Shown piece by piece: positions 18,627 through 55,043 of a stretch of 64,000 nt of DNA. Every line of letters begins with the position of its first letter. Positions within the stretch are counted from its first letter, which is position 1. The notes below the pieces were generated by a model. That model saw nothing but the letters and a program-made list of their open reading frames with translations. It was not told the origin of the DNA and made no database searches. Source of the stretch: Candidatus Versatilivorator sp. (GTDB lineage Bacteria; Acidobacteriota; Terriglobia; Versatilivoradales; Versatilivoraceae); NCBI GenBank assembly GCA_965207735.1, contig OZ242296.1:2208001-2272000 (forward strand), in the 5' to 3' direction. Made by a program: the position numbers and the translations under genes.

Positions 18627-20130
18627 CCCCCCCGGGAGCGCGGGCGTCTCGCCCGCATTCGACTTGGCATGATGGAAACGATCCCCCTAAGGGTGAGTTG
18701 GGTGCGCTTTGCGAGGGAGTGGCCGGGGGCGGCAGACTGTTTGCAGGAATTCGGTTGCGGGCGGGACGCCCGCGTTCCCGGGGGGGCCATTCCTTTGCCG
18801 GTTTCCCGTGCGTCCATACTTCGTTGGCGACTTGGCGCACCGCACCTATTTCTTGGACCATTCTCGCTTTGGAGGCAATACGGCTCGTGAAGAAAGACCA
18901 CCCGGGAGCGCGGGCGTCTCGCCCGCACAAGGCCTGGCACGAACGTGGCTACCTCCCGCACTTCGATGAAGCGGGAACGGTGCAATTTCTCACTTTCCGC
19001 CTTGTTGACGCGGTTCCCGCCGCGACAGTCACCGCCTGGAAAACCGAACTGAAGCTCAGTGGCGGTGAAACGGCCGACGATCCCCGCTGTGCGCGCCTTC
19101 GCGGCCGAATCGAGCGTTTCGCCGACCAGGGACACGGCGCCTGCTGGCTGAAAGACGCCCGCGCCGCGCAGGTGGTCCAGGATGCGCTGCTGCATTTTGA
19201 CGGTGAGCGGTATCGGCTTCTGGCGTGGGTCATCATGCCCAATCACGTGCATGCGGTAATCGAGACACTGCCCGGCTTTCCCTTGGACGGGGTCATTCAC
19301 TCCTGGAAGTCGTTCACTGCCAAGCGGGCCAATCGACTCTTGGGCCGGACTGGCGCCTTCTGGATGGGAGACTACTTCGACCGCTATGTCCGCGATGAGG
19401 CACATCTCTGGGACGTAATGCGTTACATGGAAGAGAACCCCGCAAAGGCGGGTTTGGTGCGCTTCGCAAGGGAGTGGCCGTGGATGGGAGGCTGTCTACA
19501 GGAATAAGACCCACCCGGGAGCGCGGGCGTCTCGCCCGCACAAGGCCTGGCACCATGGAAACGATCCCCCTAAAGGTGAGTTGGGTGCGCTTTGCGAGGG
19601 AATGGCCGCGGACGGCAGGCGGCTTGCAGGAATAAGGTTGCGGGCGGGACGCCCACCCGGGAGCGCGGGCGTCTCGCCCGCACAAGGCTCGGCACCATGG
19701 AAACGATCCCCCTAAAGGTGAGTTGGGTGCGCTTTGCGAGGGAATGGCCGCGGACGGCAGGCGGCTTGCAGGAATAAGGTTGCGGGCGGGACGCCCACCC
19801 GGGAGCGCGGGCGTCTCGCCCGCACAAGGCTCGGCACGAAGGAAACGATCCCCCTGAAGGTGAGTTGGGTGCGCTTTGCGAGGGAATGGCCGTGGATGGG
19901 AGGCTGTTTGCAGGAATAGGGTTGCGGGCGGGACGCCCGCGTTCCCGGGGGTTTGGTGCACTATGCGAGGGAATGGCCGTGGATGGGAGGCTGTTTGCAG
20001 GAATAAGGTTGCGGGCGAGACGCCCGCGTTCCCGGGGGTTGGTGCACTGTGCGTGGGAATGGCCCTGGACCGCAGGCTGTTTGCAGGAATAAGGTTGCGG
20101 GCGGGACGCCCGCGCTCCCGGGGGGGCCTT
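18627..20130. repeat. Repeat family C: REP/REPIN-like cluster around the RAYT gene (CCCGGGAGCGCGGGCGTCTCGCCCGCA and inverse), 142-bp tandem units downstream
   Basis: Paired inverted REPs at about 18630/18757 and tandem units from about 19514 with 142-bp period. Confidence 0.9.
18887..19507 (+). CDS. REP-associated tyrosine transposase (RAYT, Y1/HUH family)
   Basis: WHERGYLPH, FLTFRL, WVIMPNHVH (HUH), WKSFTA, FW..DYFDRYVRD, Y.EENP.KAGL; GGAGG then GTG at 18887; flanked by REPs. Confidence 0.92.
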   Translation: MKKDHPGARASRPHKAWHERGYLPHFDEAGTVQFLTFRLVDAVPAATVTAWKTELKLSGGETADDPRCARLRGRIERFADQGHGACWLKDARAAQVVQDALLHFDGERYRLLAWVIMPNHVHAVIETLPGFPLDGVIHSWKSFTAKRANRLLGRTGAFWMGDYFDRYVRDEAHLWDVMRYMEENPAKAGLVRFAREWPWMGGCLQE

Positions 20131-22456: not shown

Positions 22457-22702
22457 GGTCTTGCTCCTCCTATGCGGCCGGGCAGGCGGGCGGCACAGTT
22501 TATTGGCCTGAAGGGAGAATCTGTTTCAGGAAGGAACCCTATCCCGTGGCCGCCAGGTCGAATCACCGGCGACAACGAGTGAACCGTCCATTTTCCCTTT
22601 TCCGTGGAATCGGGCAGTCCGATGCCGTATCGACCACAAGGGTTGCCTCCTATCTGTTTCAGACCCAGTCGGAGTTCGATCCCGATAAGGCAACCACAGG
22701 GG

Positions 22703-23045
22703 TTGATCCACCAGGGAACACGAAGGTCGGCGAAGGGTCACCAAGGAGTTGGAGGACGATCCAGAGGGGTCCGCCAAGGGTCGGGAGCGGCGAAGGAGCA
22801 AAGCCACCCGGGAGCGCGGGCGTCTCGCCCGCACAAGGCCCGGCACCATGGAAACGATCCCCTAAAGGTGAGTTGGGTGCGACTTGCGAGGGAATGGCCG
22901 TGGATTGCAGGCTGTTTGCAGGAATAAGGTTGCGGGCGGGACGCCCGCGCTCCCGGGGGGTTTGGCGCGACTTGCGAGGGAGTGGCCACGGACGGCAGGC
23001 TGTTTGCAGGAATAAGGTTGCGGGCGGGACGCCCGCGCTCCCGGG
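22703..23045. repeat. Family D unit followed by family C mini-element
   Basis: ATCCACCAGGGAACACGAAGG... then CCCGGGAGCGCGGGCGTCTCGCCCGCACAAGGCCCGGCACCATGGAAACG...TGCGGGCGGGACGCCCGCGCTCCCGG. Confidence 0.8.
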
Positions 23046-23155
23046 CCAACCTTCATACTCTAGCGGTTTGGTGGTACACTGTGCAGGCATCGGTTTCCTT
23101 CCAGAATAGATTTAACTAACTGGATAAGAGTAACTTAACGAATTCCGATACCGGA

Positions 23156-24316
23156 ATGGACACCACGCCGAACGAGCCGCACGACCTCGATAGTCCCGGC
23201 AAGAGCCAGACGGTATCCATCGTGGTGCCGACCTTTCGCGAGGCGGCCAACATTCCCCGCCTGGCCGAGCGCATTCAGGCCGCCCTCTCCGACAGCGGAC
23301 TTGCCTGGGAGCTGCTGCTGGTCGACGACAACTCGGAGGACGGTAGCGAGGCCGTGGCGGCGGAGCTGGCGGGCCGCCTGCCCGTGCGCCTGGTGACGCG
23401 CCGCCGACCGCCTCGGGACCTGTCGCTCTCCGTGATCGAGGGAATCCGGCTCAGCCGCTTCGACCGGCTGGTGGTGATGGATGCCGATCTGTCCCATCCG
23501 CCCGAGCGCATCGCCGATCTGCTGGCCGCCCTCGAGGCCGATTGCGACATGGTGATCGGCAGCCGCTACGCGCCGGGCGGCCTCATCGATCGGACCTGGA
23601 GCCCCTGGCGCTTGCTGAATTCCCGCCTGGCAACCTCATTGGCGCTTCCCCTGGTCGGCTGCTCCGATCCCATGGCCGGGTTCTTCGCGACCGACCGCCG
23701 CCGGCTACCGGACCTTCAGAGCTTGCAACCCATCGGCTACAAGATCGCCCTGGAGCTGATGGTGCGCGGGAAATTGCGGGTCAAGGAACTGCCCATCGAC
23801 TTCCGCGACCGCAGCCTGGGCTCCAGCAAGATGAACTGGAGGCAGCAGCTCAACTACCTACGTCACCTGTACCGTCTCTACCGGTGCAAGTTCGGCGGGC
23901 CGACCCGGCTTCTCTGCTTCGGGCTGGTAGGCGCCAGCGGCCTGGTGATCGATGTCGCTTGCTACCTCGGTCTGCAGTGGATCGGCCTCGAGCACCGCCT
24001 GGCGCGTTTGCTGTCCTTCTGGCCGGCCGTCACCTGGAACTGGCGCCTCAACCGGAGCTTCACCTTCGGCGAGCGCCCTCGGGAGCCCCGCGTGCACCAA
24101 TGGGGAAAGTTCGTGGCCGGCAGCCTGGTGGGGCTCAGCGTGAACGTGGGCGGCTACACGGTCTTGACCAGCCTGGTCGACTTCTTCGCCTCTCATCGAC
24201 TGCTGGCGCTCCTGTTGGGCGTCCTCCTGGGCACCGTCGTCAACTTTCTGCTTGCAAACCTCTATGTCTATCGCCTGCACTCGGAAAGGCCTGGAATCGA
24301 GGCTTCAGGGAAATGA
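23156..24316 (+). CDS. Polyprenol-phosphate mannose synthase-like GT2 fused to a GtrA-like membrane domain
   Basis: SIVVPTFRE, VDDNSEDG, VMDADLSHPP, GSRY..GG, DPMAGFF, GYKI.LE (DPM1/Ppm1-like); C-terminal FGLVGASG...WN..LNR.FTF GtrA pattern. Confidence 0.88.
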   Translation: MDTTPNEPHDLDSPGKSQTVSIVVPTFREAANIPRLAERIQAALSDSGLAWELLLVDDNSEDGSEAVAAELAGRLPVRLVTRRRPPRDLSLSVIEGIRLSRFDRLVVMDADLSHPPERIADLLAALEADCDMVIGSRYAPGGLIDRTWSPWRLLNSRLATSLALPLVGCSDPMAGFFATDRRRLPDLQSLQPIGYKIALELMVRGKLRVKELPIDFRDRSLGSSKMNWRQQLNYLRHLYRLYRCKFGGPTRLLCFGLVGASGLVIDVACYLGLQWIGLEHRLARLLSFWPAVTWNWRLNRSFTFGERPREPRVHQWGKFVAGSLVGLSVNVGGYTVLTSLVDFFASHRLLALLLGVLLGTVVNFLLANLYVYRLHSERPGIEASGK

Positions 24317-25980
24317 CCAAGCGGAAGAAAGCAAGAAGAAACCGGCCCCGAGCGCGACGGGCCGCCGCGCAGCCCGCCTTGCCACGGATTCGGGCGGCGC
24401 TCGACATCCTGCTGCATCCAAGGCAGACCGACCGGCCCTGGAAATATCTGCCGCTGGTGCTGGCGCTGGCATTTGCGGTGCGCTCCGCGGTGGCTTTGTC
24501 GGGTGACTTCGTTCTGCACCCCGACGAGATCATGCAGTACCTGGAGCCGGCACACCGCCTGGTTTTCGGCAGCGGCGTCACCTACTGGGAATACTTCTAC
24601 GGCGCGCGCTCCTGGCTGGTGCCCGGAACGGTGGCCGGCGTCCTCATGCTGTTCGACGCCGTCGGCCTGGGTCAGCCGTCCTGGTACGTGGGCGGCGTCA
24701 AGCTGCTGTTCTGCGCCATCTCGCTGACGATTCCGGCCGGCATGTACTTCTTTGCCCGACGCCACTTCAGCGAAACCGCAGGGAGAGTAGCCTTGCTGGC
24801 GGGCGCCTTCTGGTACGAACTGGCCGGCTTCGCCCACAAACCCATGACCGAGTTCGTAGCCACGGCTCCGCTGGTGGCGCTGCTGGCGCTCTCCGTGCGG
24901 CCCTCCCCGGCAAACGCCCGCACGGTCTGGATGGCGGCCTTTCTCGGCGTCCTGACGGCAGCCATACGGTTGCAGTACGCACCGGTTGCGCTGGTGCTGC
25001 TGGGAATCGTGTTTCTGCGAACCGGGAAGAGGATTCAGCTCACACTGGCCGGGGCCGGGTTTGCCGTCGCCTTCGGCCTGTTCGACGCTATCTCGTGGAA
25101 CGGCGGCCTGTTCCACTCCTACGTCACCAACATCCGCTTCAACCTCGTTCTCGGTGCGGCGCGCACCGGAGAGAGTCCGGCCTACCAGTTCCTGTTGTGG
25201 CTCGCCATCGCGGGCCTGGGGCTGAGCCTGCTTTGCCTGGCGATGGCCTTGCGCCGGGTGCGGCGCTACGGATTCCTGCTGGGGCTGATCGCCCTGGTCC
25301 TGCTGCTGCATTCCCTGCAAGCCCACAAGGAGTACCGTTTCATCTTTGCCGTCATTCCGCTCTGGATCCTGATCGGCGCCGACCTGGCGGCGCGGTTGGC
25401 GGCGCGCGGGGACGGGTCGCGCCGGTTTGCCGGACTTGCAGCCGCCGGGTTCGCCGCCGTTTCCCTGGCAGGGATCCTGAATGGACTGCCCTACCAGGAC
25501 CGGGTGTACCGAGCCTGGTCGAGGGAGACCGGAGTGGTGGGCTTCGTCCGCAATCAGGACCCCATCTTCCCCGCTTATCGCTATCTTGCCCGCGCGCCCG
25601 GGGTGACCGGGGTATGGCAGGTCGACCGCGCCTATTACAATCTCCCGGGATACTACTACCTGCACCGCAAGATACCCTTCTACGACAGGGGCACGGGGAC
25701 CAGCCTCAAAGGGAATGTGGAAGCGGTTTCGTCCCGGGTCAGTCACATCGTATCCGCGGACCCCGGCTTTTCCGTTCCCGGATACTCCCTGGACCAGACA
25801 TTCGGCGAAGTTCGCATCTTGCGCCGCGACGAGAACGAACCGCCCGTCCGACCCTGGATCGACTACGCTCCCATCATGGTGTCCAATCGCTTTAGACGGA
25901 TTATCAGGCGGATAGATCCGGACAGCCCTTCTCCGCCGGCCAATTTCGGGATCCGATTTGCAGACCGGGAAAGGCCGTAG
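24313..25980 (+). CDS. GT22 (PIG-B/ALG9-like) membrane mannosyltransferase
   Basis: HPDEIMQYLEPAH...G...WEY...ARSW and HKEYRFIF motifs; about ten TM helices; ATGA overlap with the upstream gene. Confidence 0.82.
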   Translation: MTKRKKARRNRPRARRAAAQPALPRIRAALDILLHPRQTDRPWKYLPLVLALAFAVRSAVALSGDFVLHPDEIMQYLEPAHRLVFGSGVTYWEYFYGARSWLVPGTVAGVLMLFDAVGLGQPSWYVGGVKLLFCAISLTIPAGMYFFARRHFSETAGRVALLAGAFWYELAGFAHKPMTEFVATAPLVALLALSVRPSPANARTVWMAAFLGVLTAAIRLQYAPVALVLLGIVFLRTGKRIQLTLAGAGFAVAFGLFDAISWNGGLFHSYVTNIRFNLVLGAARTGESPAYQFLLWLAIAGLGLSLLCLAMALRRVRRYGFLLGLIALVLLLHSLQAHKEYRFIFAVIPLWILIGADLAARLAARGDGSRRFAGLAAAGFAAVSLAGILNGLPYQDRVYRAWSRETGVVGFVRNQDPIFPAYRYLARAPGVTGVWQVDRAYYNLPGYYYLHRKIPFYDRGTGTSLKGNVEAVSSRVSHIVSADPGFSVPGYSLDQTFGEVRILRRDENEPPVRPWIDYAPIMVSNRFRRIIRRIDPDSPSPPANFGIRFADRERP

Positions 25981-25983
25981 CCG

Positions 25984-28149
25984 ATGGCGCAGAGAAACAA
26001 GACGAGACCGAGCAAGCGCAAGCGATCGGCCTTGAGGGCAGCCTCCTCGCCCAAGGCAAGTGCCCCCGGCACAACCGAAACCGGAAGGGCTCAATCGTCC
26101 CCGGTTCCTCGCGAGTCCAGGCGGTTGTTTGACCGGTTCTCGGGCCGGGGTGCGCTGGCCGCCCTGGCGCTGGGCCTGCTGGCGGGGGTGTGCTACCTGC
26201 CGGCAATGCTTTGGGGCGGCTTTGTCTGGGATGACTTCATCTGGTTTCAGTCCCGGGCGGTGCTGGAGTGGTCCGGCCTCGGCGACATCTGGTCCTGGCC
26301 GTCGCGCATTCACCGAGAGGTGCACTACTGGCCTCTGACCTATACCACCTTTTGGCTGGAACACAAGATGTGGGGCCTGGCTCCGGCCGGCTATCACATC
26401 GTCAACGTGCTGCTGCACCTGCTGAACTCCCTGCTGGTGTGGCGCCTGCTGCTGCGCCTGGCCGTGCCCGGGGCCTGGGTTGCGGCCGCCGTGTTCGCCG
26501 TGCATCCGACGCACGTGGAGTCGGTGGCCTGGATCATCGAGCGCAAGGACGTGCTTTCGGGTCTTTTCTACCTGGCTGCCGTGCTGGTCTGGCTGCGCTT
26601 CCTGGAAAAACCGCGACCCTGGCGCTACGGCCTGGCGCTGCTGCTGTTCGCGGCGGGCCTGTTGAGCAAGTCCATGGTGGTGACGCTGCCGGCGGCCTTG
26701 CTGATTGTCCAGTGGTGGAGGAACGGCCGCATCGCGGTTCGGGATCTGCGGCGCATGGCCCCGTTCTTCCTGGTGGCTCTGCTCATCACGGCACTGGATC
26801 TCTACTCGGTCGGTTCGAAGTCCAGTCTGCTGGACTACTCGCTTCCCGAGAAGATGCTCATCGCGTCGCGGGCCTTGTGGTTCTACGCGGGCAAACTGGT
26901 CTGGCCGGCCGATCTGGCCATCATCTACCCGCGGTGGGACATCAGCCTCGGGGAACCCTGGGCTTGGCTCTACCTGGCCGGGGCGGGTGCACTGGCAGCC
27001 ACGCTGTGGTCGATGCGCCACAGGATTGGGCGCGGTCCGCTGGCCGGAGCCTTGTTCTTCGCAGTGACGCTGTCGCCGGTGCTGGGCTTCGTGAATCACG
27101 GTTACATGGACTACTCCCTGGTGGCCGACCGCTTTCAATACCTGGCCGGCATCGGGGTCATGGCAGTCCTCATCGGCGCCGCCGTACAGGGCGCCGGCCG
27201 GCTGCAGGGCCGATTGAAGTGGGGGGCGGCGGGTCTTCTGGTGGTGGTGCTGGCGCTTCTTGGAACCATGACCTGGAGCCAGGCGGGAATCTACCGGGAC
27301 AAGATCACCTTCTTCAGCCACATCGTCTCTCTCAATCCGGAGGCGCGGAACGCTCACTTCAATCTCAGCCAGGCCTTGGGCAGGGCAGGCCGTACCGAGG
27401 AAGCCCTGGCCCCCGCCCGGATGGCCGTGGAACAGCGCCCGGATGATGCCAGAGCCCTTTGCATGCTCGGTTCCGTACTGATTCACATGGAACGGTTCGC
27501 CGAGGCCGAGGAGACCTTGCGCCGCGCCCTGGAGATCGATCCCGACCACAAGTGCAGTCGCCGGGAAATGGCCCATATGCTACGGATGCAAGGACGCCGT
27601 GAGGAAGCGCTCGACGCCTATCGCGCGCTGCTTGAAATCTACCCCAACTACGCCCTGGCCTATGCCTACGTCGGCCGTGTGCTGGTTCAGCTCCAGCAAT
27701 ACGAAGAGGCCGTCAACCCCCTGAGCAAGGCCCTGGCAATGACCAGGGCGGCATCGTCCGTGACGGCGGAATTGCCCAAACCCGTGTCTGTTCATGTGCT
27801 CCTGGGCACGGCCTTGCGGGAGCTGGGGCGGACCCGGGCGGCGGAGGATCACTTCCGGCAAGCCCTGCAGCTCGACCCGCGCAACAGGGAGGCGCTCGAC
27901 CAGGTCGCCGCGGCGCATTTCAGGCGGAAGCGTTTCCAGGAGGCGCTCGATCTCTATCGAACCCTGTTGGAGATCGCTCCCGACGCGGCATCCGCTCACG
28001 CCGACATCGGCGTGACCCTCTACTACCTGGACCGAACCGAAGAAGCCATCCGGAGCCTGGAGCGGGCTCTTGCCCTGGACCCGTCCCTGGAAACGGCCAG
28101 AAACAATCTCGAAGAGATCCGCAAGAGAATCCGGCAACCGGAGGAATAG
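25984..28149 (+). CDS. TMTC-like GT-C membrane protein with C-terminal TPRs, copy 1
   Basis: FVWDD acidic motif after TM1, YWPLT, YH.VNV.LH, FAVHP.HVESVAWI.ERKD, ADRFQYL, TPR array. Confidence 0.85.
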   Translation: MAQRNKTRPSKRKRSALRAASSPKASAPGTTETGRAQSSPVPRESRRLFDRFSGRGALAALALGLLAGVCYLPAMLWGGFVWDDFIWFQSRAVLEWSGLGDIWSWPSRIHREVHYWPLTYTTFWLEHKMWGLAPAGYHIVNVLLHLLNSLLVWRLLLRLAVPGAWVAAAVFAVHPTHVESVAWIIERKDVLSGLFYLAAVLVWLRFLEKPRPWRYGLALLLFAAGLLSKSMVVTLPAALLIVQWWRNGRIAVRDLRRMAPFFLVALLITALDLYSVGSKSSLLDYSLPEKMLIASRALWFYAGKLVWPADLAIIYPRWDISLGEPWAWLYLAGAGALAATLWSMRHRIGRGPLAGALFFAVTLSPVLGFVNHGYMDYSLVADRFQYLAGIGVMAVLIGAAVQGAGRLQGRLKWGAAGLLVVVLALLGTMTWSQAGIYRDKITFFSHIVSLNPEARNAHFNLSQALGRAGRTEEALAPARMAVEQRPDDARALCMLGSVLIHMERFAEAEETLRRALEIDPDHKCSRREMAHMLRMQGRREEALDAYRALLEIYPNYALAYAYVGRVLVQLQQYEEAVNPLSKALAMTRAASSVTAELPKPVSVHVLLGTALRELGRTRAAEDHFRQALQLDPRNREALDQVAAAHFRRKRFQEALDLYRTLLEIAPDAASAHADIGVTLYYLDRTEEAIRSLERALALDPSLETARNNLEEIRKRIRQPEE

Positions 28150-28180
28150 TGGCTCGAAGAAGCGCGAACAGAGAGCAAAG

Positions 28181-28337
28181 ACCCCCCGGGAGCGCGGGCG
28201 TCCCGCCTGCACAAGGCCCGGCACCAAGGAAGAGAACTCCGTAGTGGCGGTTTCGGTGCGCTTTGCAAGGGAGTGGCGTGGGTGGGAGGCAGTTTGCAGG
28301 AAAAAGGATGCGGGCGGGAGGCCCGCCCCCCCGGGGG
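28181..28337. repeat. Family C mini-element between the TMTC paralogs
   Basis: REP, CACAAGGCCCGGCAC, RAYT-3'-like spacer, inverted REP. Confidence 0.8.
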
Positions 28338-28352
28338 AAGAAGGGAAACAGA

Positions 28353-30548
28353 ATGGTGAAGAGAAAGAAAAAGAGACGCACTCAGCGCAGGCGCTTGGAC
28401 TCGGGGCCGGCTTCCTCGCCTCAAGCCATGGTCTCCGTCAAAGCCGGGTCCGCAAAAACGCAGTCGTCCTCCGCTCCCCGGCAGGCGACCGGGTTTTTCG
28501 ACGGAATCTCGCGCCGGGATGCGCCGGCCGCCCTGGCTCTGGGCCTGCTGGCGGGGGTCTGCTACCTGCCCGCGATGCTTTGGGGCGGCTTTGTCTGGGA
28601 TGACTTCATCTGGTCTCAGTCCCGGGCGGTCCGAGAGTGGTCCGGTCTCGGCGCCATCTGGACCTGGCCAAATCTGATTGAGAAAGAGGCGCACTACTGG
28701 CCGCTGACCTATACCACCTTCTGGCTGGAACACAAGATGTGGGGACTCGAGCCGGCCGGCTATCACGTCGTCAACGTGCTGCTGCACCTGCTCAACACCC
28801 TGCTGGTGTGGCGCCTGCTGCTGCGTTTGGCCGTGCCCGGGGCCTGGATTGCAGCCGCCGTGTTTGCCGTGCACCCGCTGCACGTGGAGTCGGTGGCCTG
28901 GATTTTCGAGCGCAAGGACGTGCTATCCGGTCTTTTCTACCTGGCTGCCGTGCTGGTGTGGCTGCGCTTCCTGGAAAAACCGCGACCCTGGCGCTACGGC
29001 CTGGCGCTGCTGCTGTTCGCGGCGGGCCTGTTGAGCAAGTCCATGGTGGTGACGCTGCCGGCGGCCTTGCTGATTGTCCAGTGGTGGAGGAACGGCCGCA
29101 TCGCGGTTCGGGATCTGCAGCGGGTGGCGCCGTTCTTCCTGGTGGCGCTGCTCATCACGGCACTGGATCTCTACTCGGTCGGTTCGAAGTCCAGTCTGCT
29201 GGACTACTCGCTTCCCGAGAAGATGCTCATCGCGTCGCGGGCCTTGTGGTTCTACGCGGGCAAGCTGGCCTGGCCAACCGATCTGGCCGTCATCTACCCG
29301 CGGTGGGACATCAGCCTCGGGGACCCCTGGGCATGGCTCTACCTGGCCGGGGCGGCGGCGCTGGCGGCAACGCTGTGGTTCCTGCGCCACAGGATTGGGC
29401 GCGGTCCGCTGGCCGGGGCGCTGTTCTTTGCGGTGACGCTGTCGCCGGTGCTGGGCTTCGTGAATCACGGCTACATGCAGTACTCCTTTGTGGCCGATCG
29501 CTTTCAATACCTGGCCGGCATCGGGGTGATGGCGGTCGTCATCGGCGCCGCCGTACAGGGCGCCGGCCGGCTGCCGGGCCGATTGAAGTCGGGGGCGGCG
29601 GGTCTACTGGTGGTGGTGCTGGCGCTTCTTGGAACCATGACCTGGCGCCAGGCGGAAATCTACCGGGACGCCGTCACCTTCTTCAGCCACATCGCCTCTC
29701 TCAACCCCGAGGCGCGGAGCGCTCACTACAATCTCAGCATCCATTTGACCAGGGCAGGCCGTCCGGAGGAAGCCCTGGCCGCCGCCCGGATGGCCGTGGA
29801 AAACCGCCCTCAGGCCAAAGACCTTTCCACCCTCGGCGCCGCGCTGATTGACATGGAACAGTACGTCGAGGCCGAGGAGGTCTTGCGCCGCGCCCTGGAG
29901 ATTGATTCGAGCCACAAGAATACTCTCCGGCAAATGGCCAGAATGCTCAGGGAACAAGTACGCTTCGAGGAAGCGCTGGAGGCATACCGCCGCTTGCTCG
30001 AAATCGACCCCGAGGACGCACTTGCCCACGGCTACACGGGCAATATACTGTTCAACCTACATCGACCCGACGAAGCCATCGAGCCCCTGAACAGGGCCCT
30101 GACACTCACCCGGGCCGCACGGTCGCTGACACCGGACTTGCCGACGCCGGAGGCTCTGCATGTCCTGCTGGGCAAGGCGTCGTGGGAAGCGGGCCGACTC
30201 CAAGTGGGAGAGGAGCACTTCCGGCAAGCTCTGCAACTCAATTCGCGCAATACAGAGGCACTCGAGCATATCGCCGTTTCGCATTTCAGGCAGAATCGTT
30301 TCCAGGAGGCGCTCGATCTGTATCGAACCCTGTTGGAGATCGATCCCGACAAGGCGTCCACCTACTCCAACCTGGGCGCGGCCTTGTATCAACTGGGCCG
30401 GTTCGAAGAAGCACGCCAAAGCCTGGAGCGCGCGCTCGCCCTGGACCCTACCCTGGAAATGGCCAGATCCAACCTCGAAAAGGTACGCAAGACCGTGCCA
30501 AAGCCGGGGGAAAGCGCGTTCACCCCGATGGCGCCCGCAAGGAAATGA
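28353..30548 (+). CDS. TMTC-like GT-C membrane protein with C-terminal TPRs, copy 2
   Basis: Same motifs as copy 1 and near-identical membrane domain; start re-called at MVKRKK. Confidence 0.85.
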   Translation: MVKRKKKRRTQRRRLDSGPASSPQAMVSVKAGSAKTQSSSAPRQATGFFDGISRRDAPAALALGLLAGVCYLPAMLWGGFVWDDFIWSQSRAVREWSGLGAIWTWPNLIEKEAHYWPLTYTTFWLEHKMWGLEPAGYHVVNVLLHLLNTLLVWRLLLRLAVPGAWIAAAVFAVHPLHVESVAWIFERKDVLSGLFYLAAVLVWLRFLEKPRPWRYGLALLLFAAGLLSKSMVVTLPAALLIVQWWRNGRIAVRDLQRVAPFFLVALLITALDLYSVGSKSSLLDYSLPEKMLIASRALWFYAGKLAWPTDLAVIYPRWDISLGDPWAWLYLAGAAALAATLWFLRHRIGRGPLAGALFFAVTLSPVLGFVNHGYMQYSFVADRFQYLAGIGVMAVVIGAAVQGAGRLPGRLKSGAAGLLVVVLALLGTMTWRQAEIYRDAVTFFSHIASLNPEARSAHYNLSIHLTRAGRPEEALAAARMAVENRPQAKDLSTLGAALIDMEQYVEAEEVLRRALEIDSSHKNTLRQMARMLREQVRFEEALEAYRRLLEIDPEDALAHGYTGNILFNLHRPDEAIEPLNRALTLTRAARSLTPDLPTPEALHVLLGKASWEAGRLQVGEEHFRQALQLNSRNTEALEHIAVSHFRQNRFQEALDLYRTLLEIDPDKASTYSNLGAALYQLGRFEEARQSLERALALDPTLEMARSNLEKVRKTVPKPGESAFTPMAPARK

Positions 30549-30551
30549 GTT

Positions 30552-31503
30552 GTCCACGAAGGGGGTCCGTGCAGAACCGTGACGGGGTCAAAAGACTTAT
30601 CCACGAAGGGGGTCCGAGAAGAATCGTGACGGGGTCAAAAGGCTTATCCACGAAGGGGGTCCGAGAAGAATCGTGACGGGGGTTAAAAGATTTCCACGAA
30701 GGGGCACGAAGGTCCACGAAGGGGCACTAAGGCGGCGGAGGTGGATCGGGAGGGGTGCCAGGGGTCGGGTAGGGAAAAGAAAAAGATGTCCACGAAGGGA
30801 GTCCGAGAAGAATCGTGACGGGGTTAACAGATTTCCACGAAGGGGCACGAAGGGGCACTAAGGGGTTGGAGGTGGATCGGGAGGGGGGTGCCAGAGTTCG
30901 GGTAGGAAAAGGAAAAAGATTTCCACGAAGGGAGTCTATGCAGAACCGTGACAGGGGAAAAGGCTTATCCACGAAGGGAGTCCGTGCAGAACCGTGACGG
31001 GGGAAAAGACTTTTCCACGAAGGGGCACGAAGGACCACGAAGGGGCACTAAGGCGTTGGGGGTGGATCGGGAGGGGGTTGCCAGGGTTCGGGTAGGAAAT
31101 GGAAAAAGACATCCACGAAGGGAGTCATTGCAGAACCGTGACGGGGTCAAAAGACTTATCCACGAAGGGAGTCTATGCAGAACCGTGACGGGGGGGAAAG
31201 GCTTATCCACGAAGGGGCACGAAGGTCCACGAAGGGGCACTAAGGCGGCGGAGGTGGATCGGGAGGGGGGTGCCAAGGGTCGGGAAGGGAAAGGAAAAAG
31301 ATTTCCACGAAGGGAGTCTTTGCAAAACCGTGACGGGGAGAAAAGGCTTATCCACGAAGGGGCACGAAGGACCACGAAGGGGCACTAAGGCGTTGGGGGT
31401 GGATCGAGAGGGAGTTGCCAAGGGTCAGGAAGGAAAAGGGAAAAGAAATCCACGAAGGGAGTCCATGCAGAACCCTGACGGGGTCAAAAGACTTATCCAC
31501 GAA
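30552..31503 (+). repeat. Repeat family D array, purine-rich orientation (TCCACGAAGGGGCACGAAGG...CCGTGACGGGG)
   Basis: Many CCACGAAGGG and CGTGACGGGG units starting about 5 bp after the TMTC copy 2 stop. Confidence 0.9.
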
Positions 31504-31552
31504 ACAGTATATTGCCGACCTGGTTTGCTTTGAACAGGTTGAGGATTTCCTT

Positions 31553-32231
31553 TAACCCCCATCACGATTCTTCTCCGAGCCCTCCGTGGAAATCTTTTTC
31601 CCGTTTCCCCCCTTCCCAATCCCTGGCAACCCCCTCTCGAATTACCTCCGACGCCTTCGTGCCCCTTCGTGGTCCTTCGTGCCCCTTCGTGGAAATCTGT
31701 TAACGCCGCCACGATTCTTCTCGGACCCCCTTCGTGGAAATCCCTTCACCCCCGTCACGATTCTTCTCCGAACCCTCCGTGGACATCTTTTCCCCTTTTC
31801 ACCCCTTCCCGAACCCTGGCAACCCCCTCTCGAATTACCTCCGATGCCTTAGTGCCCCTTCGTGGTCCTTCGTGCCCGTTCGTGGAAATCTGTTAACCCC
31901 CGTCACGATTCCCCTCCGAACCCTCCGTGGAAATCATTTTCCCTTTTCTCCCCTTCTCGATCCGTGGCAACCCCCTCTCGAATTACCTCCGATGCCTTAG
32001 TGCCCCTTCGTGGTCCTTCGTGCCCCTTCGTGGAAATCTGTTAACCCCCGTCACGATTCCCCTCCGAACCCTCCGTGGAAATCTTTTTCCCTTTTCTCCC
32101 CTTCCCGATCCGTGGCAACCCCCTCTCGAATTACCTCCGACGCCTTAGTGCCCCTTCGTGGTCCTTCGTGCCCCTTCGTGGAAATCTGTTAACCCCCGTC
32201 ACGATTCCCCTCCGGACCCCCTTCGTGGATT
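31553..32231 (-). repeat. Repeat family D array, inverted orientation, 148-bp period
   Basis: CCCCTTCGTGGTCCTTCGTGCCCCTTCGTGGA units with 148-bp spacing; ends a few bp from the cyclase stop. Confidence 0.9.
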
Positions 32232-32235
32232 ACTC

Positions 32236-35641: not shown

Positions 35642-37411
35642 TCAGTTTCCGAGGTTTTCTCCCCTGGCCGGGGAACGTGCTCCTCCGAACTCCGGATCGG
35701 GAATCACCAGGGCCAGGTAACCGGTGGCCATGTCCAAGGATGCTCCCTGCATGGAATCGATCAGGATCATGGCCATTCCATGGGCATGACGGAAGCCTGC
35801 CCGGGCGATGGCGTATCCCTCGAATCCGGGCAGGAAATCGCTGCAGGTAAACGAAACGGTATCGCCCGCGGCCAGGCTGGAGGCGATCTCCATCACCATG
35901 GTCGGCGGCACCCTTCCGCTGGAGCCGTCGAAAGTGGGGATGCTCCTGGCAAAGGCATGAAACACGACGCTTCCGGACTGCTCCACCGCACCGCCGCTGA
36001 GTCCGAAGACCCCGTCGTCGCTGGTGGTGTTGGCAATGGAAATGACCATGTCCCAATTGGGGTAGGCGCCGCAATTGAGTTGGGGGAACAGCAGGTAGGT
36101 GACACACGGGGTGAAGTTCAGGATGCGGCCGTCGGGAAAGACGATCTCCGGATCGGATTCCGGCATCATCAGGTAGGAAAGCACCGAAGCGCGATCGTCG
36201 TCCTCACCGCTCTTGCCGGCCGGTCCAAGCCAAGCCCAGATATCGGCGATGCCGCCGGACCCCGCCATGTCGGGGTCGACTTCAACCGTGAACTCGATCT
36301 TGAAGAAATCCGAAACGGTGGCGACGTTCCTGTCGCCAGCGCCGGTCCTGCCCTCCGCGGTGGCGGCGTAGATGTAGGTGACCGTCTCGCCGGTGCCGGC
36401 AGCCACCGTCTCGCCCTCGACCTCTTCCTGACCGGCACCCCTATTATTGGCCGCATCCACCTGTCCGGCCTCTCGACGGGATGCATCCGTCAGGGTGAGA
36501 TTGCTCCAAGCGTTACGGGGGGAGGCATCCTGGTCGGGATCCATGAAATTGACCCCATGGGGCCAGCGCAAGTCGGTCCCCTCGGGCAAGTTGTTCACCT
36601 GGATGGTGACCCTGGTGGAGCCGATCCCGGATCCTTCATCGTCTTCCCAGGCCCGGGCGAAGCCCTCGGTCACCGTGATGGACGGGACGCCGCCGATGGG
36701 AACTTCAACGTCGTCGGCCGTATCGGCGGTGCCCTGGTCATCGGTCATGGTTCCGAGGTTGCACAGGAGCCGGTTGGCGCGCCCGACTTCAACCCTCAAG
36801 CCGTCCCTGACGATGGACACCCTGCCCCCCACGTTTTCGGACCTCTCCCGATCGATGGGAACGAACCCGGTGGGAGCCGTGGCGGAATTGATGGAGGCCA
36901 GGATCCTGTCTCCATCGGACAGGCGCGAAACGTCGGCTCGCACTCCCCGCAGAACCACAAAGCCGAACTGGCCGGCATCGGGCCGGGCGGTCCCCAGGGC
37001 GAGGGTGACCGTGCCGACCCCGGTGTCCTTGTCATTGGCGATGGTTGCGGCAATGCCGCCGTCGCAACTGGTGTCGGCTTCTCCTTCGGCGTCAGTCTGG
37101 TTGAAGGTACCGGCGCACAGCAACTCGGCGCCTCCGGTGAGATAGAGGCCACCGTAGTTCACGGTGACGGTCCTGCCGTCATCGATATCGCCGCCGCCGT
37201 GGGAGTAGTCCAGCCGGATGGCGCCCATCTCCTGGTTGCGTCCGTGCTGGACCACGGTCGTCTCGGATTTGGAGACTATGAATCCTTGGGCGTTGGCCCG
37301 CGTAAGGGACAGTCCCGGCAGGAGCAAGGCGCACAATAGAAGGGTTGATGGTGTTCGCAGGTTCTCGGTCGCCATTGTGAAGATCCAGCGGAGAAACGGC
37401 CGTCGTATCAA
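35642..37411 (-). CDS. Secreted acidic Gly/Thr/Asp-rich protein, S-layer-like, paralog 1
   Basis: GAGGAG RBS with TTG start; signal peptide ending ANA/QGF; colinear with 38617-40326, sharing VTYLLFP, FEGYAIA, FRHAHGMA and GYLALVIPDPEF. Confidence 0.7.
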   Translation of the reverse strand: MIRRPFLRWIFTMATENLRTPSTLLLCALLLPGLSLTRANAQGFIVSKSETTVVQHGRNQEMGAIRLDYSHGGGDIDDGRTVTVNYGGLYLTGGAELLCAGTFNQTDAEGEADTSCDGGIAATIANDKDTGVGTVTLALGTARPDAGQFGFVVLRGVRADVSRLSDGDRILASINSATAPTGFVPIDRERSENVGGRVSIVRDGLRVEVGRANRLLCNLGTMTDDQGTADTADDVEVPIGGVPSITVTEGFARAWEDDEGSGIGSTRVTIQVNNLPEGTDLRWPHGVNFMDPDQDASPRNAWSNLTLTDASRREAGQVDAANNRGAGQEEVEGETVAAGTGETVTYIYAATAEGRTGAGDRNVATVSDFFKIEFTVEVDPDMAGSGGIADIWAWLGPAGKSGEDDDRASVLSYLMMPESDPEIVFPDGRILNFTPCVTYLLFPQLNCGAYPNWDMVISIANTTSDDGVFGLSGGAVEQSGSVVFHAFARSIPTFDGSSGRVPPTMVMEIASSLAAGDTVSFTCSDFLPGFEGYAIARAGFRHAHGMAMILIDSMQGASLDMATGYLALVIPDPEFGGARSPARGENLGN

Positions 37412-37532: not shown

Positions 37533-38384
37533 CTAGGGATTCGCCGGTTCGGAGGGCCTACTGCCGGCGGCTTCCCGCGAGGGGCTGGGGGGCTGGGCGG
37601 CCTCTTCGGGAGTGTACACCTTGCCCGTGATGCGAAGCTTGACCATTTCCTTGACGGGCTCGAACTGGACGAAGAAATCCTGCACAAAAACTCCGTGAAG
37701 CTTGGCCGTGTCGAGTTCCACCAGGATCTCTCCCGATTCCCCGGCCGGAATCACCCGCTTTTCCGTCCTGTCGGCGATGAGACGCTCGGGACCATGGATC
37801 CTCTCGACCACAATGTCTCCGGAGGAAGCGTTGCGAAAGGAATAACGGGATTGGACGGGATCGCCCTGCACGGCCGTTGCGAAATCGAAGACCGATTGCT
37901 CGAACTCCGCCTTGGTGGCGGCTCCCAGCTTATCGTAGTAGTACTCCCTGAAAAGCTCGGCATCGGATTGGGGAGGATCGGCCGGGTCCAGGAACCACTC
38001 CCCCTCCTGCTTCTTCCAGCGAAACCTATCCCTGACCGTCAAGCGGCTGATTCCCCCGGCCGCGACCACTCGGCTAATAGTGACGATCGCCGAACTGTTG
38101 CCGACGTCGGGTTCCACGCCCACGATGCGGAAGTTGCTGATTCGGGCCTTCCCTGACCGGGAGACGTCGACGGCATCCCTGGAACCGGGAAGGATGAACT
38201 CCCTGGCCTGGCTGAAACGCCGGGCGTGAACCGCCCTGAAGTAGGCGGTCACCCGCTGCTTGAGCTGCTCCACGTCGGCCTGGCCTCCCTCCTCCGAACC
38301 GGTCACGGCACTTGCCGACATCCAGGACGCCAGCAGGACGGCCAACAAACCCGTGGAAAGCAGAATACACGTCGATCGCAGCAT
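37533..38384 (-). CDS. Exported protein with C-terminal DUF1573-like Ig domain
   Basis: Signal peptide; FDF...QGD.V...YSFRN...IPAGESGEI.V..DT....G.F pattern. Confidence 0.65.
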   Translation of the reverse strand: MLRSTCILLSTGLLAVLLASWMSASAVTGSEEGGQADVEQLKQRVTAYFRAVHARRFSQAREFILPGSRDAVDVSRSGKARISNFRIVGVEPDVGNSSAIVTISRVVAAGGISRLTVRDRFRWKKQEGEWFLDPADPPQSDAELFREYYYDKLGAATKAEFEQSVFDFATAVQGDPVQSRYSFRNASSGDIVVERIHGPERLIADRTEKRVIPAGESGEILVELDTAKLHGVFVQDFFVQFEPVKEMVKLRITGKVYTPEEAAQPPSPSREAAGSRPSEPANP

Positions 38385-38616: not shown

Positions 38617-40326
38617 CTACTGCCCCAGGCTTTCTCCATCGTTGGCTCCTCTTCCGGCGTTGTTGAATTCCGGATCGGGAATCACCAGGGCCAGGTAGCC
38701 ATGGGCCACGTCCTGGGAAGCTCCGTCGGCAAAGTTACCCAGGACGATAGCCATTCCGTGGGCATGACGGAAGCGCGCCTTGGCTATGGCATACCCTTCG
38801 AACCCGGGCATGATGGTGCTGCAGGTGGTCGAATAGGTATCGCCCGCGGCCAGGCTGTCGGTCAGCATCATGCTCATGGGTTTTGCCATGTGCTTCATGC
38901 TGTCCTCACCGTAGGTGCTCCGCGGGAAGGCGTGCAGAATGATGTCTCCGTTCTGGGCCGCCGCACCGTCACTGATTCCAAAGACTCCGTCATCCAGGGT
39001 GGTGTTGGAGATGGCGATGGCGGTGGTCCAGGCGGGGTCAGAGCCGCAGGTGAGGTAGGGGAAGAGCAGATAGGTGACGCACTCGGTGAAGTTGATGATG
39101 TCACCATCGTCGGATTCCGGATCGGTAACCGGGCTCATGTTGTAGGACAGTATCGTACCCCGGTCGTCGTCGTCACCGCTCTTGCCGGCCGGTGAAAGAA
39201 ACGCCCAGAGATCGGAGATGCCGCCGGCGCCCACGTCGGCCAGTGTGGCGATGTCGACATCGAACTCGATCTTGAAGGCTTCGGACTCGGTGGTCACGCT
39301 CTTGTCGTTGGCGCCGGTCCTGCCTGCCGCTTCATTCGAGTACACATAGGTGACCTCATCGCCGGCGGTGGCAGCGACAGTCGTGCCATCGACGTCTTCC
39401 TGACCCGCACCCGTAGTGCCGACAACCCTGCCGGCAGTCCGCCGGGAGGCGTCCGTCAGGGTGAGAGTGCTCCATACAGTGTCCACGTCTTCGGCGGGAT
39501 CCGCGAACGTGACCGTATGCGGCCAGCGCAAGTTCACTCCCTTAGGCAGATTGAGCATCTTGACGGTGATGTTGGTGGCGGAGATCCCGGATTGTTCCAC
39601 GCTTTCAAAGGCCGTGGCGAAACCCTCCGTCACCGTGATCGACGGGGTGCCGCCGATGGGAGTCGAAGTATCGTCTGCAGTGTCGTCCGTGCCTTGGTCA
39701 TCTACAAGGTCACCGATGTTGCACAGGAGCCGGCTGGCGCCCCCGAGCGTCACGGCCAAGCCGCCCTTGACGGTGGACACCACGCCACCCACGCTCTCGG
39801 TCCTGTCCTGGCCGATGGGAACGAAACCGCTCGGGGCCGAGGAGGAATTGACCGAGGCCACGATGGTGTCGCCGGCGGACAGGCCCGAAACGTCGGCCCT
39901 GACGTTTTTCAGAATGACGAAAGACCCGGCCGCCCGGCCCGCGGTCCCCATGCTGATGGTGACCGTTCCGACGCCGGTGTCGTCATCGTTGGCAACGGCA
40001 GCCGTGATAGCGGAGCAGGTGTCGGTTCCGAAACCGCCGCCGCACTGCAATGTAGCGGTGCCAGCGGTGGTGGAAGCGTTGTCGTTGGCAATGGCGGCGG
40101 AGGTGATCCTCAAACTACCGTAGGTCACCGTGATGGTCCTGCCGTCATCGATGTTGCCGCCGCTGGCAGCGTAGTCCAGCCGGATGGCGCCCATCGGCTG
40201 GTTTCTACCATGCATGACCACATCGGTCTCGCTCTTGGAGACGGTGAACCCTTGGGCATTCACCTGGGTCGCAGCCATCCCCAGCATGAGCAAAGCACAT
40301 ACTGCAATGGTAAATGTAACTCTCAT
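38617..40326 (-). CDS. Secreted acidic Ser/Thr/Gly/Ala-rich protein, S-layer-like, paralog 2
   Basis: GAGGAG RBS; MRVTFTIAVCALLMLGMAATQVNA signal peptide; own strong promoter and terminator. Confidence 0.75.
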   Translation of the reverse strand: MRVTFTIAVCALLMLGMAATQVNAQGFTVSKSETDVVMHGRNQPMGAIRLDYAASGGNIDDGRTITVTYGSLRITSAAIANDNASTTAGTATLQCGGGFGTDTCSAITAAVANDDDTGVGTVTISMGTAGRAAGSFVILKNVRADVSGLSAGDTIVASVNSSSAPSGFVPIGQDRTESVGGVVSTVKGGLAVTLGGASRLLCNIGDLVDDQGTDDTADDTSTPIGGTPSITVTEGFATAFESVEQSGISATNITVKMLNLPKGVNLRWPHTVTFADPAEDVDTVWSTLTLTDASRRTAGRVVGTTGAGQEDVDGTTVAATAGDEVTYVYSNEAAGRTGANDKSVTTESEAFKIEFDVDIATLADVGAGGISDLWAFLSPAGKSGDDDDRGTILSYNMSPVTDPESDDGDIINFTECVTYLLFPYLTCGSDPAWTTAIAISNTTLDDGVFGISDGAAAQNGDIILHAFPRSTYGEDSMKHMAKPMSMMLTDSLAAGDTYSTTCSTIMPGFEGYAIAKARFRHAHGMAIVLGNFADGASQDVAHGYLALVIPDPEFNNAGRGANDGESLGQ

Positions 40327-40557
40327 TTTCTCTCCTCTTTGTTTGGATCTAAAAACTAAAGACACTTCACATTTTTAACGAACAACGATGGAAACTCCAG
40401 TGGCAGCAGCTTGATATTTAGCGGGCGCTCACCTCCTCTTCCCTGGTGAGAATTTGCTGGAGGAAGCCCTCATGGCCCTCTCGAACAGCCTTCCCGTATC
40501 TATCAAACTGTGCATCACTGCGTACCGAAAAATGAATTTCGCTGCAAAACCAGCGGT

Positions 40558-44613: not shown

Positions 44614-44654
44614 GCGCTGCCCGCCCGGGTGTTCAAGAGACCCCGGGGGAGGGG

Positions 44655-45419
44655 CTATTTCGATTTGTCCTCGACCCAGGACCTGACGGGCCCGAAAGGG
44701 GTACTCTCCTCGACCAGACGCTTGCCGCCCACGACCGTTCCCACCGGCACCTCCCAGGTCTTGGGCAGCTGCTTCGCTTGCGATCTCGACCGGGTCTGCC
44801 GCCTTCTGGCGGCCGCTTCCCGCCTCTCCCTGGAACTGCTCCCGGAACCGACGCCGGTCGTTCGGGACCGTGTAGTCCGGGCGGGGCCGGCGGTGCGGGC
44901 GGCGCTGGGAGTGCGGGCCGTCCTCCTCGGTTTCCTGGATCGATCGTGCAGGCCGACCTTGACCTCCCTGTTGCCTGTCTTCATGACCACCCGATCGGCC
45001 TCGATGCGCACCAGGGTGTAGCCGTCCAGCTCTTCACCCACCTTGAGACGGCGATAGAGGCCGCCGGAGCTTCGGGAGCTCCCCGAAACCATGAGGGCAA
45101 CCTCTTCCCCCCCAATCCCCATGGTCCCCATCAGGACCGGCGCGGGCCGAAGCAGCACCTGCTGCTCTTCCACAGCCTCCTCGGGGAGATCGTTGTGGCG
45201 GTCGGAGTGGAAGAGGTGGTGGCCGGCAATGGCGCCGGCATCGGAGGCCGAGACCGGGGAGTCCGGCAGGCTGGAAGCGGCGGCTGCTTCGGGACCGGGT
45301 CCGGGGGAATCGAGGCGGCCCTCGCCCTCGGCCATGCCCCAGTTGTCGGCCAGCAGATAAACCCAGAGGGCGGCCAGCCCCAGCAGCAGCAGATTGACCT
45401 GAACCGTTCGTCTTTTCAC
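44655..45419 (-). CDS. Type II secretion GspC/GspN-like protein
   Basis: N-terminal TM, LF...R motif, LMGTMG...LKVGEELDGYTLVRIEADRVV HR-like domain; directly upstream of gspD. Confidence 0.65.
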   Translation of the reverse strand: MKRRTVQVNLLLLGLAALWVYLLADNWGMAEGEGRLDSPGPGPEAAAASSLPDSPVSASDAGAIAGHHLFHSDRHNDLPEEAVEEQQVLLRPAPVLMGTMGIGGEEVALMVSGSSRSSGGLYRRLKVGEELDGYTLVRIEADRVVMKTGNREVKVGLHDRSRKPRRTARTPSAARTAGPARTTRSRTTGVGSGSSSRERREAAARRRQTRSRSQAKQLPKTWEVPVGTVVGGKRLVEESTPFGPVRSWVEDKSK

Positions 45420-48563: not shown

Positions 48564-48595
48564 GGCCGTTCTACCTTATCTTTATATACAGGCTC

Positions 48596-49690: not shown

Positions 49691-49769
49691 CTAGATCGCT
49701 CGAACGGGGAAAAAGTCGAAAGAGGGGGCAAGAAAGGACGACGAACCGCAAATGGACACGAAAAAAAGA

Positions 49770-50545: not shown

Positions 50546-50584
50546 CCCGGGGGGATCTCTTTCCGGGGAGCATGCCGGAGCCGG

Positions 50585-51016: not shown

Positions 51017-51149
51017 CTCTCTTCCCTTCCCCTTAGAGCGTTTGAATCGCAAGAAAGTCGAAAGAGGCGTCGGGGATTGTGGATTTTGGATTGTAGGTTA
51101 TCGATTTGGGGCGCATTCAGACGTCGTAGGTCCCAATCGACTGATGGTC

Positions 51150-51930: not shown

Positions 51931-51964
51931 GGGGATCTCTTTCCGGGGAGCATGCCGGAGCCCG

Positions 51965-52396: not shown

Positions 52397-52417
52397 CTCT
52401 CTTCCCTTCCCCTTAGA

Positions 52418-54346: not shown

Positions 54347-54464
54347 CTTAGAGCGTTTGAATCGCAAGAAAGTCGAAAGAGGCGTCGGGGATTGTGGATT
54401 TTGGATTGTAGGTTATCGATTTGGGGCGCATTCAGACGTCGTAGGTCCCAATCGACTGATGGTC

Positions 54465-55005: not shown

Positions 55006-55043
55006 ATGGGTGGATATCTCTTTTTGTCCGAGGCACGACGTTG

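Follow-up and report, generated by a model that had tools for sequence, protein, structure and literature searches.

A shared gene cassette predicted to mannosylate secreted proteins in the periplasm of a Candidatus Versatilivorator bacterium

Animal TMTC1–4 (CAZy GT105) are protein O-mannosyltransferases of the endoplasmic reticulum (ER) that act on the B and G strands of cadherin domains, and in which a glycosyltransferase (GT) membrane domain of the GT-C type is followed by tetratricopeptide repeats (TPRs). The type-III dolichol-phosphate mannose synthase (DPMS) of Pyrococcus furiosus is a fusion of a GT2 domain with a GtrA-like domain, and ALG9, ALG12 and PIG-B are mannosyltransferases of CAZy family GT22. 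In the Ppm1/Pmt O-mannosylation of monoderm Actinobacteria, polyprenol-phosphate-mannose is used outside the membrane on protein Ser/Thr by a GT39 Pmt. The GtrA/GtrB/Gtr* and ArnC/ArnE-F/ArnT systems join a cytoplasmic lipid-sugar synthase and a GtrA-type membrane domain to a swappable GT-C enzyme. Here we describe a cassette of four genes, g1 to g4, in a 64,000-nucleotide stretch (the window) of the acidobacterium Candidatus Versatilivorator sp. (GenBank assembly GCA_965207735.1, contig OZ242296.1; C1:2208001-2272000 of genome G000, which is one contig and 100% complete; G001 onwards are the genomes of relatives, and L numbers are individual loci). The cassette resembles the Gtr and Arn systems in layout, but its synthase g1 is much closer to DPMS and its GT-C enzymes are a GT22 protein (g2) and two TMTC-like proteins with TPRs (g3 and g4), the latter standing where Actinobacteria have Pmt.

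We propose, with a probability of about 0.5, that these genes form an intact, horizontally shared cassette that would O-mannosylate, in the periplasm, one or more secreted S-layer-like proteins encoded 5–10 kb away (Table 1). In the proposed mechanism, g1 would make polyprenyl-phosphate-mannose from GDP-mannose, a step well supported by homology, and its GtrA domain may help to flip the lipid-linked mannose. The DD motif of g3 and g4 would place the first mannose on protein Ser/Thr on the periplasmic side, and their divergent TPR domains would choose the clients ahead of export by type II secretion. As an optional accessory module rather than a required step, g2 would extend a sugar already in place, which could be this O-mannose or a different glycan of the envelope, with further mannose. 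Relatives of every part are already known: the accessible parts of PMC7801869 and PMC10214176 mention homologues of TMTC and TMEM260 in prokaryotes, with PMC7801869 noting full-length TMTC homologues without a function. Our literature search, largely without subscription papers, found no description of the cassette and no tested bacterial TMTC or GT22 enzyme, and the literature found assigns no substrate to the bacterial TMTC-like family. New here are the arguments for mannose at the level of individual residues and the replacement pattern at the S-layer-like genes, both described below.

The four genes are real and intact. All lie on the + strand with zero internal stops, and their coordinates reproduce the ATGA overlap of g1 and g2 and the 3-bp spacing of g2 and g3 on which a preliminary description of this locus had relied; g3 and g4 are 203 bp apart. 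Pfam placed GT2 (PF00535, E = 2e-24) and GtrA_DPMS_TM (PF04138, E = 3e-21) on g1, and PMT_2 (E = 4e-7 and 5e-7) plus TPRs on g3 and g4, while g2 matched Glyco_transf_22 (PF03901; E = 2e-28, 100 bits against a gathering cut-off of 23.8). The earlier family assignments are supported. Contigs of sequencing run X1, possibly the window's own source, showed 0 differences from the window over 23016–26235 (three overlapping pieces), 27247–28604 and 29616–30599. Because the contig at 27247–28604 spans the g3–g4 junction, the duplication is not an assembly artefact; identity between the two copies is 91.5% over the membrane domain but 62.8% over the TPR region. Among the first 20 residues of g2–g4, 8–10 are Lys or Arg, which under the positive-inside rule would leave the N-terminus cytoplasmic and the first acidic loop periplasmic.

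The closest solved relative of g1 is Pyrococcus DPMS (PDB 5mlz; E = 7.4e-53 over residues 17–366), with ArnC at E = 5e-16 and GtrB at E = 5e-7 in the same search, and the NCBIfam model of the ArnC-type synthase scored g1 at 55 bits, below its cut-off of 529. We took DPMS residues from the accessible parts of PMC5526996 and PMC12992685 and mapped them onto g1 through the 5mlz alignment. P. furiosus DPMS (PfDPMS) residues E12, D39, D89, D91, H94, R117, R131, S135, K178, R202 and K208 are all kept in g1 and conserved in 15–16 of 16 catalytic-domain homologues; R117, R131, S135 and K178 correspond to g1 R137, R152, S156 and K196, each present in 16/16. This identity of donor and acceptor-phosphate residues, on the same GT2 and GtrA-like fusion, argues that g1 works like DPMS, and we consider it very probable that it makes polyprenyl-phosphate-mannose from GDP-mannose, using a bacterial polyprenol. 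Nevertheless, g1 falls outside the strict type-III definition at three positions: in the DADxQHPP motif (PMC12992685, accessible part) Q93 is replaced by S in g1 and in 16/16 homologues, and in the polar pocket, which is proposed to serve flipping, and its gate N248 is D266 and F338 is T360, with N277 kept as N295. Since PfDPMS itself prefers GDP-Man over GDP-Glc just four-fold (in the passages of PMC5526996 and PMC12992685 from which the residues come), g1 by itself cannot settle the sugar.

The residues of g2 bear on the same question. A 50-sequence g2 profile matched ALG9 (9s6s, E = 0.0012) and ALG12 (9s6t, E = 0.0067) in the PDB in weak, local alignments, and a single-sequence PDB search with g2 returned nothing useful. 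In ALG9, D82 is the base, R112 and R370 bind the donor phosphate, and N288 and H366 (ALG12 N247 and H308) orient the mannose (PMC13503287, accessible part). The first three fall on g2 D71, R99 and R342, kept in 91, 91 and 92 of 92 homologues, and N288 and H366 on N277 and H338, kept in 89 and 85; this mapping was read from the profile alignments with a 6-residue tag offset, N288 being reached through ALG12 N247. Besides PF03901, g2 thus shares with ALG9, ALG12 and PIG-B the catalytic base, the two arginines at the donor phosphate and the two residues that select mannose, while the acceptor-binding R428 and R577 of ALG9 fall outside the aligned stretches. A g2 structure model from a shallow alignment had a predicted local distance difference test (pLDDT) score of 55.9 and zero Foldseek matches. 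Unlike its eukaryotic relatives, g2 resides in a bacterium in which no N-glycan or glycosylphosphatidylinositol pathway is expected, and genes of its type are often single or in tandem arrays.

Gene neighbourhoods provided further evidence on the sugar. A scan of species genomes gave 205 g2 relatives, the best 80 of which lie in 74 loci (50–84% identity, labelled with 10 phyla), where we counted neighbours within 9 kb of the GT22 gene. The GDP-mannose enzyme ManC (TIGR01479, 657 bits) occurs in 6 of these 74 loci, and in L070 and L071 it separates the homologues of g1 and g2. A ManC of the TIGR01479 type is absent from G000, which at C1:3667882-3668997 encodes a homologue of the Mycobacterium/eukaryote-type mannose-1-phosphate guanylyltransferase (309 bits, below the NCBIfam cut-off of 440; GMPPB in the PDB at E = 5e-51). 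Taken together, the g1 residues, the mannose-orienting residues of g2 and the presence of ManC inside related cassettes support mannose, as first proposed, and in all likelihood this is the sugar. The proposal of a lipid-linked donor feeding periplasmic GT-C enzymes is likewise supported.

Like animal TMTC1–4, g3 and g4 consist of an N-terminal GT-C domain and C-terminal TPRs. An AlphaFold2 model of g3 residues 51–572 had a pLDDT of 97.2, and its fold search returned AglB (Z 20.4, root-mean-square deviation 4.2, 315 aligned), STT3B (19.3), Pmt2 (18.6), ArnT (18.5) and ALG12 (17.2), with no TMTC chain among the structure matches. Foldseek with this model gave only TPR proteins among the matches listed, and a single-sequence PDB search with g3 gave nothing useful. 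NCBIfam gave no ArnT model for g3 and g4 among the 25 matches listed of 30 and 34, and none for g2. The sequence connection to animal TMTC1–4 runs through bacterial homologues bearing DUF1736 (PF08409): in 41 relatives, 36 of which have g3 matches, 13 of 15 DUF1736 matches fall in open reading frames (ORFs) also matched by g3, all 7 above the cut-off included, as compared by hand cross-listing. An Atlas search with g3 listed bacterial clusters first and, at rank 18 of 30, a eukaryotic DUF1736 cluster scoring 0.93. Using the TMTC motifs of Table 4 in the accessible part of PMC7801869, which we located by eye in 56 rows without that paper's alignment, we found M1 (DD) in 55/56, M3 (RxD) in 55–56/56 and M7 (ERxxY, with D for E) in 55/56. 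H, Y and P of M2 (SHKSYRP) are kept, with W for R, as is the second P only of M6 (PxxP). Use of a lipid-phosphate-mannose donor is predicted to be common to both groups; the bacterial proteins differ in being encoded with their own donor synthase and a GT22.

With the DUF1736 overlap and the TMEM260-like genes found in 9/74 GT22 loci counted in favour of a protein acceptor, we judge that g3 and g4 probably transfer mannose to protein Ser/Thr in the periplasm. A rival explanation is that the cassette is a three-part Gtr-type system mannosylating an envelope glycolipid or polysaccharide (lipopolysaccharide core, O-antigen or lipoglycan) and not protein. ArnT indeed ties with Pmt2 in the g3 fold search, a GT2, a GtrA and a variable GT-C make up the Gtr layout (PMC12992685, accessible part), and known GT22 enzymes use lipid-linked glycans (PMC6801728; PMC13503287, accessible part); moreover, GT22 is the sole one of the cassette-associated GT-C families in 18/74 loci, and the arrays differ in order and number. 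However, g3 and g4 connect by sequence to the TMTC family rather than to ArnT, and carry TPR domains. The far closer relation of g1 to DPMS than to ArnC or GtrB and the co-occurrence of TMEM260-like genes with the cassette also argue against an envelope-glycan acceptor, as does a separate, stronger PMT_2 gene elsewhere in G000, which from its motif we take to be the ArnT-like one. We regard this rival as rather unlikely.

We found that the S-layer-like proteins, suggested in the preliminary description as one of several plausible substrates, are linked to TMTC-like genes well beyond the genus. Of 17 genomes outside it with both positions listed, 10 have a TMTC-like gene at most 10 kb away from an S-layer-like one (G014, G017, G018, G020, G022, G023, G026, G030, G031 and G033, from five families), against a rough chance expectation of about 2% (five genes × 20 kb / 6 Mb). 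These S-layer-adjacent TMTC-like genes are distant, with about 30% identity. Six loci that we read contain gspD, the S-layer-like gene, DUF1573 and one to four TMTC-like genes, often plus GT4 genes. Among 20 more distant loci, a TMTC-like gene is near the S-layer-like gene in 5, and type II secretion genes adjoin it in 16. Another suggested substrate, the product of an NHL gene, was rejected, since, of the 7 relatives read on the upstream side, just 1 has this gene next to the cassette.

Within the genus (14 genomes including G000), the cassette is 0.6–17 kb from an S-layer-like gene in 9 of the 10 genomes where both could be placed, with approximate edges. G001 is the only one of the 14 without a cassette-type TMTC gene, and also the only one with a native TMTC-like gene at the S-layer-like spot. 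Matches to this gene in other genus genomes are at most 34% identical, its GT4 neighbour is found in 1/14 at E ≤ 1e-40, and its protein groups with those of G017, G018, G020 and G022 (support 100), apart from the cassette group. On the simplest reading of this gene order, a mobile cassette replaced the native TMTC-like/GT4 locus and kept the same client; survival of the native locus only in the one cassette-less genome fits such a replacement. That S-layer-like proteins are clients of g3 and g4 we hold at slightly under even odds.

The S-layer-like family is of interest in its own right. This secreted, Ser/Thr-rich family next to a type II secretion operon (window 35642–60177; L121–L127, L131–L150) is a candidate class-wide S-layer: homologues occur in 125/301 genomes of the class, with a Ser+Thr content of 16–29% among relatives, and the family had no Pfam, NCBIfam or PDB match.

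Several observations weigh against O-mannosylation of S-layer-like proteins by the cassette. The S-layer-like label is itself putative. In 7 of the 17 genomes the S-layer-like gene has no TMTC-like neighbour inside 10 kb (a gap of 17 kb in G015; unlinked in G024, G028, G036 and G038; contig ends in G021 and G025), 15 of the 20 distant loci have none within about 9 kb, and the linkage counts come from related genomes and are not independent. The G011 cassette is 1.5 Mb from the S-layer-like genes, and in other phyla the family is not among the recurrent cassette neighbours, although no dedicated search was made. The modelled g3 fold cannot separate a protein from a lipid acceptor, and we found no bacterial TMTC-like member with a tested function in the literature. 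DUF1736 has 0 matches in G000 even at E ≤ 1 and in 0/14 genus genomes at E ≤ 0.01; in M4 (KE(T/Q)xxT) K and T are kept but E is S/T in 56/56 rows, and no DW (M5) was found in g3-type rows, the M4 glutamate and M5 DW being proposed metal ligands. Without DUF1736 and these two ligands, g3 and g4 are TMTC-like and not members of the family in the strict sense. Finally, a third TMTC-like gene of G000 (C1:3494935-3496944, L108) could perform the protein O-mannosylation.

That third gene keeps the animal-type M2, M4 and M7 motifs better. It adjoins restriction-modification-like ORFs, with no glycosylation neighbours among the ORFs listed, and similar ORFs of ~670 residues were matched in most genus genomes.

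The cassette varies considerably among genomes. A close TMTC-like gene is present in 13 genus genomes, g1 in 12 and GT22 in 10. Writing D for g1-type, G for GT22 and T for TMTC-like genes, the order is D-G-T-T in the window and D-G-T, D-G-G-T, D-G-T-G-T, D-G-T-T-T or T-T-D-G-T elsewhere, with D-T in G009, G010 and G011, where GT22 was not found and g1 directly abuts the TMTC-like gene (3/13 genomes with a cassette TMTC). In G011 (L023:8355-11429), g1 stops after its catalytic domain and abuts the TMTC-like gene, the GtrA and GT22 parts being missing there. Outside the genus, 0/27 genomes had a g2 match, and strong GT22 matches (E < 1e-15) occur in 7/301 genomes of the phylum, a set that includes one unpublished genome, not among the 7. 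Across the 74 GT22 loci, a same-clade TMTC-like gene is found in 42 (7 phyla) and none within 9 kb in 32; a g1 orthologue is found in 16, another GT2-GtrA in 5 and a lone GtrA in 13. All three gene types occur together in 15/74 (Acidobacteriota 6, Spirochaetota 4, Gammaproteobacteria 5).

This variation does not favour the compact pathway of initiation and then extension that had been proposed, given the absence of GT22 from those 3 genomes, the 32 loci lacking a nearby TMTC-like gene, and the report that animal TMTC mannoses are not elongated (PMC11292533, accessible part). Since GT22 and TMTC-like genes are often apart and the animal mannoses stay single, extension by g2 of a mannose added by g3 or g4 is doubtful. 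In a quick tree, the cassette GT22 proteins form one group (93 rows, SH-aLRT 90) separate from other acidobacterial GT22 proteins, with Acidobacteriota at several positions within it and a lone Rhodothermaceae locus, which may be a binning error, nested among Latescibacterota. Because this tree and that of the TMTC-like proteins are quick and midpoint-rooted, we claim no donor and no direction of transfer, and the tightness of the clade arises partly by construction, since the scan patterns were derived from close homologues and, of 205 matches, the best 80 were retained. The pattern fits a mobile and modular cassette that has spread horizontally. The label "eukaryote-like" should not imply a eukaryotic origin: the nearest solved relative of g1 comes from an archaeon, and the TMTC-like family is very large, with 77,052 cluster representatives at E ≤ 0.001.

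Sponges are the likely habitat for the whole cassette set. Two runs from two studies, both labelled "sponge metagenome", contain contigs about 90% identical across g1–g4, and two of the loci come from Ca. Porisulfidus, a name that a sponge genome note uses in its abstract (PMC12988363). Of the 20 sequencing runs listed as carrying this DNA, none was of RNA, and four were used here. Sponge symbionts are known to exchange genes (PMC9531527, whose main text does not mention mannosyltransferases).

Additional GT-C genes accompany GT22. The TMEM260-like (PF11028) genes are in L068, L084, L090–L093, L095, L097 and L100, in Nitrospirota, Alphaproteobacteria, Vicinamibacterales and one gammaproteobacterium. 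Two further GT-C families occur in 21 loci (e.g. L067:12259-14745, with a weak PMT_2 match) and 8 loci (e.g. L040:12294-13892, with no Pfam or NCBIfam match).

A different choice of client is conceivable, in which the cassette acts like the animal TMTCs and O-mannosylates giant adhesins with cadherin/Ig domains, the S-layer linkage being a relic of the insertion site. G000 has 23 cadherin matches in 14 ORFs (983–4845 residues) and 12 IPT/TIG matches, and cadherin matches occur in 10/14 genus genomes against 1/27 others, with none in G001. In G004 (L027:6436-15000) an ORF of 8099 residues with Big_9/cadherin domains is followed immediately downstream by a TMTC-like paralogue of 68% identity, and large Calx-beta, fn3, cohesin and He_PIG proteins are near GT22 in several other phyla. 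However, G006, G008 and G010 have the cassette but no cadherin match at E ≤ 1e-5, and the cadherin profile matched 0/74 GT22 loci. Just 8 of the 23 cadherin domains have 4–5 Ser/Thr around the last strand, 7 have one, and by eye most B-strand regions contain no Ser/Thr. Sponge symbionts as a whole are enriched in cadherins (PMC8163846, accessible part), so the co-occurrence of cadherins with the cassette may reflect habitat. Cadherin adhesins as the clients are quite unlikely. Among the 14 giant cadherin ORFs of G000 (e.g. C1:2144380-2158917), 12 share a C-terminal domain, possibly a secretion or anchoring signal. A seemingly recurrent giant Ig/cadherin neighbour of GT22 (cluster 44) was discarded, consisting mostly of opposite-strand shadow ORFs of another GT-C gene, with one real case (L078).

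The native TMTC-like loci and the g3 fold matches also bear on a scheme in which g2, in the manner of ALG9, first assembles a short chain of mannoses on a carrier lipid, and g3 and g4 then act as oligosaccharyltransferases that transfer the whole chain to protein. The top fold matches of g3, AglB and STT3B, are oligosaccharyltransferases within about 2 Z units of Pmt2, and the native TMTC-like genes of G014 and G015 occur with a PF00953 initiating transferase, GT4 and GT2 genes, and in G014 with Wzx-type genes. Yet neither an initiating transferase nor a Wzx flippase is among the recurrent cassette neighbours, and DPMS-like and TMTC-like genes occur without GT22 in 3 genus genomes. We consider such en bloc transfer very unlikely. 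At L128–L130 (G014 and G015), methyltransferase genes accompany these native genes as well, and in G015 two pilin-like genes adjoin the locus; these genes may form a route by which lipid-linked oligosaccharide reaches pilins.

If O-mannosylation of secreted proteins by the cassette is correct, it would be an additional bacterial route of protein O-glycosylation and a tractable model for TMTC chemistry, and it would suggest that symbionts swap surface glycans through gene exchange. TMTC and TMEM260 glycosylation of Ig-like domains is important in animal development, and because this locus points to a donor synthase, an enzyme and a specific candidate acceptor, three or four genes would suffice for a test in E. 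coli. A wider picture, tentative and on balance improbable, is that sponge bacteria of many phyla trade an ER-type mannosyltransferase kit (TMTC-like, GT22, TMEM260-like) and coat their surface proteins with host-like mannose, the kit having here displaced an ancestral S-layer glycosylation locus. TPR-guided, TMTC-type O-glycosylation of beta-rich surface proteins would then be an old pathway, widespread in bacteria, and the animal cadherin enzymes may be derived from it.

Table 1. The cassette and neighbouring features, in window coordinates.
Feature	Position	Strand	Description
g1	23156–24316	+	386 aa; polyprenol-phosphate mannose synthase-like, GT2 domain fused to GtrA-type membrane domain
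g2	24313–25980	+	555 aa; GT22 (ALG9/ALG12/PIG-B family) GT-C mannosyltransferase-like; D71, R99, N277, H338, R342
g3	25984–28149	+	721 aa; TMTC-like GT-C and TPR protein; DD at 83/84
g3–g4 intergenic gap	28150–28352	no strand	genome-wide repeat, 100 blastn hits in genome
g4	28353–30548	+	731 aa from ATG; tandem paralogue of g3; longest frame starts at TTG 28263
Candidate acceptor 1, secreted S-layer-like protein	35642–37411	-	589 aa, Ser+Thr 14.8%; putative label
DUF1573/Ig-like protein	37533–38384	-	Pfam; kept beside S-layer-like gene in relatives
Candidate acceptor 2, paralogous S-layer-like protein	38617–40365	-	582 aa, Ser+Thr 19.6%, 59% identity to the first
Type II secretion operon (GspE, F, prepilin-type genes, L, M, D)	42388–60177	-	upstream of S-layer-like genes

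A scan for promoters and terminators gave results at chance level. The intergenic DNA around the cassette is heavily repeated, with 100 to 1647 blastn hits in the genome, and may drive duplications; an IS200-like (Y1_Tnp) gene is also near the cassette (among window 18698–19507, 22457–23155, 28150–28352 and 30549–32235). The Acido-Lenti-1 RNA (Rfam RF01687) has four matches, at window positions 5941, 33647, 49379 and 55646.

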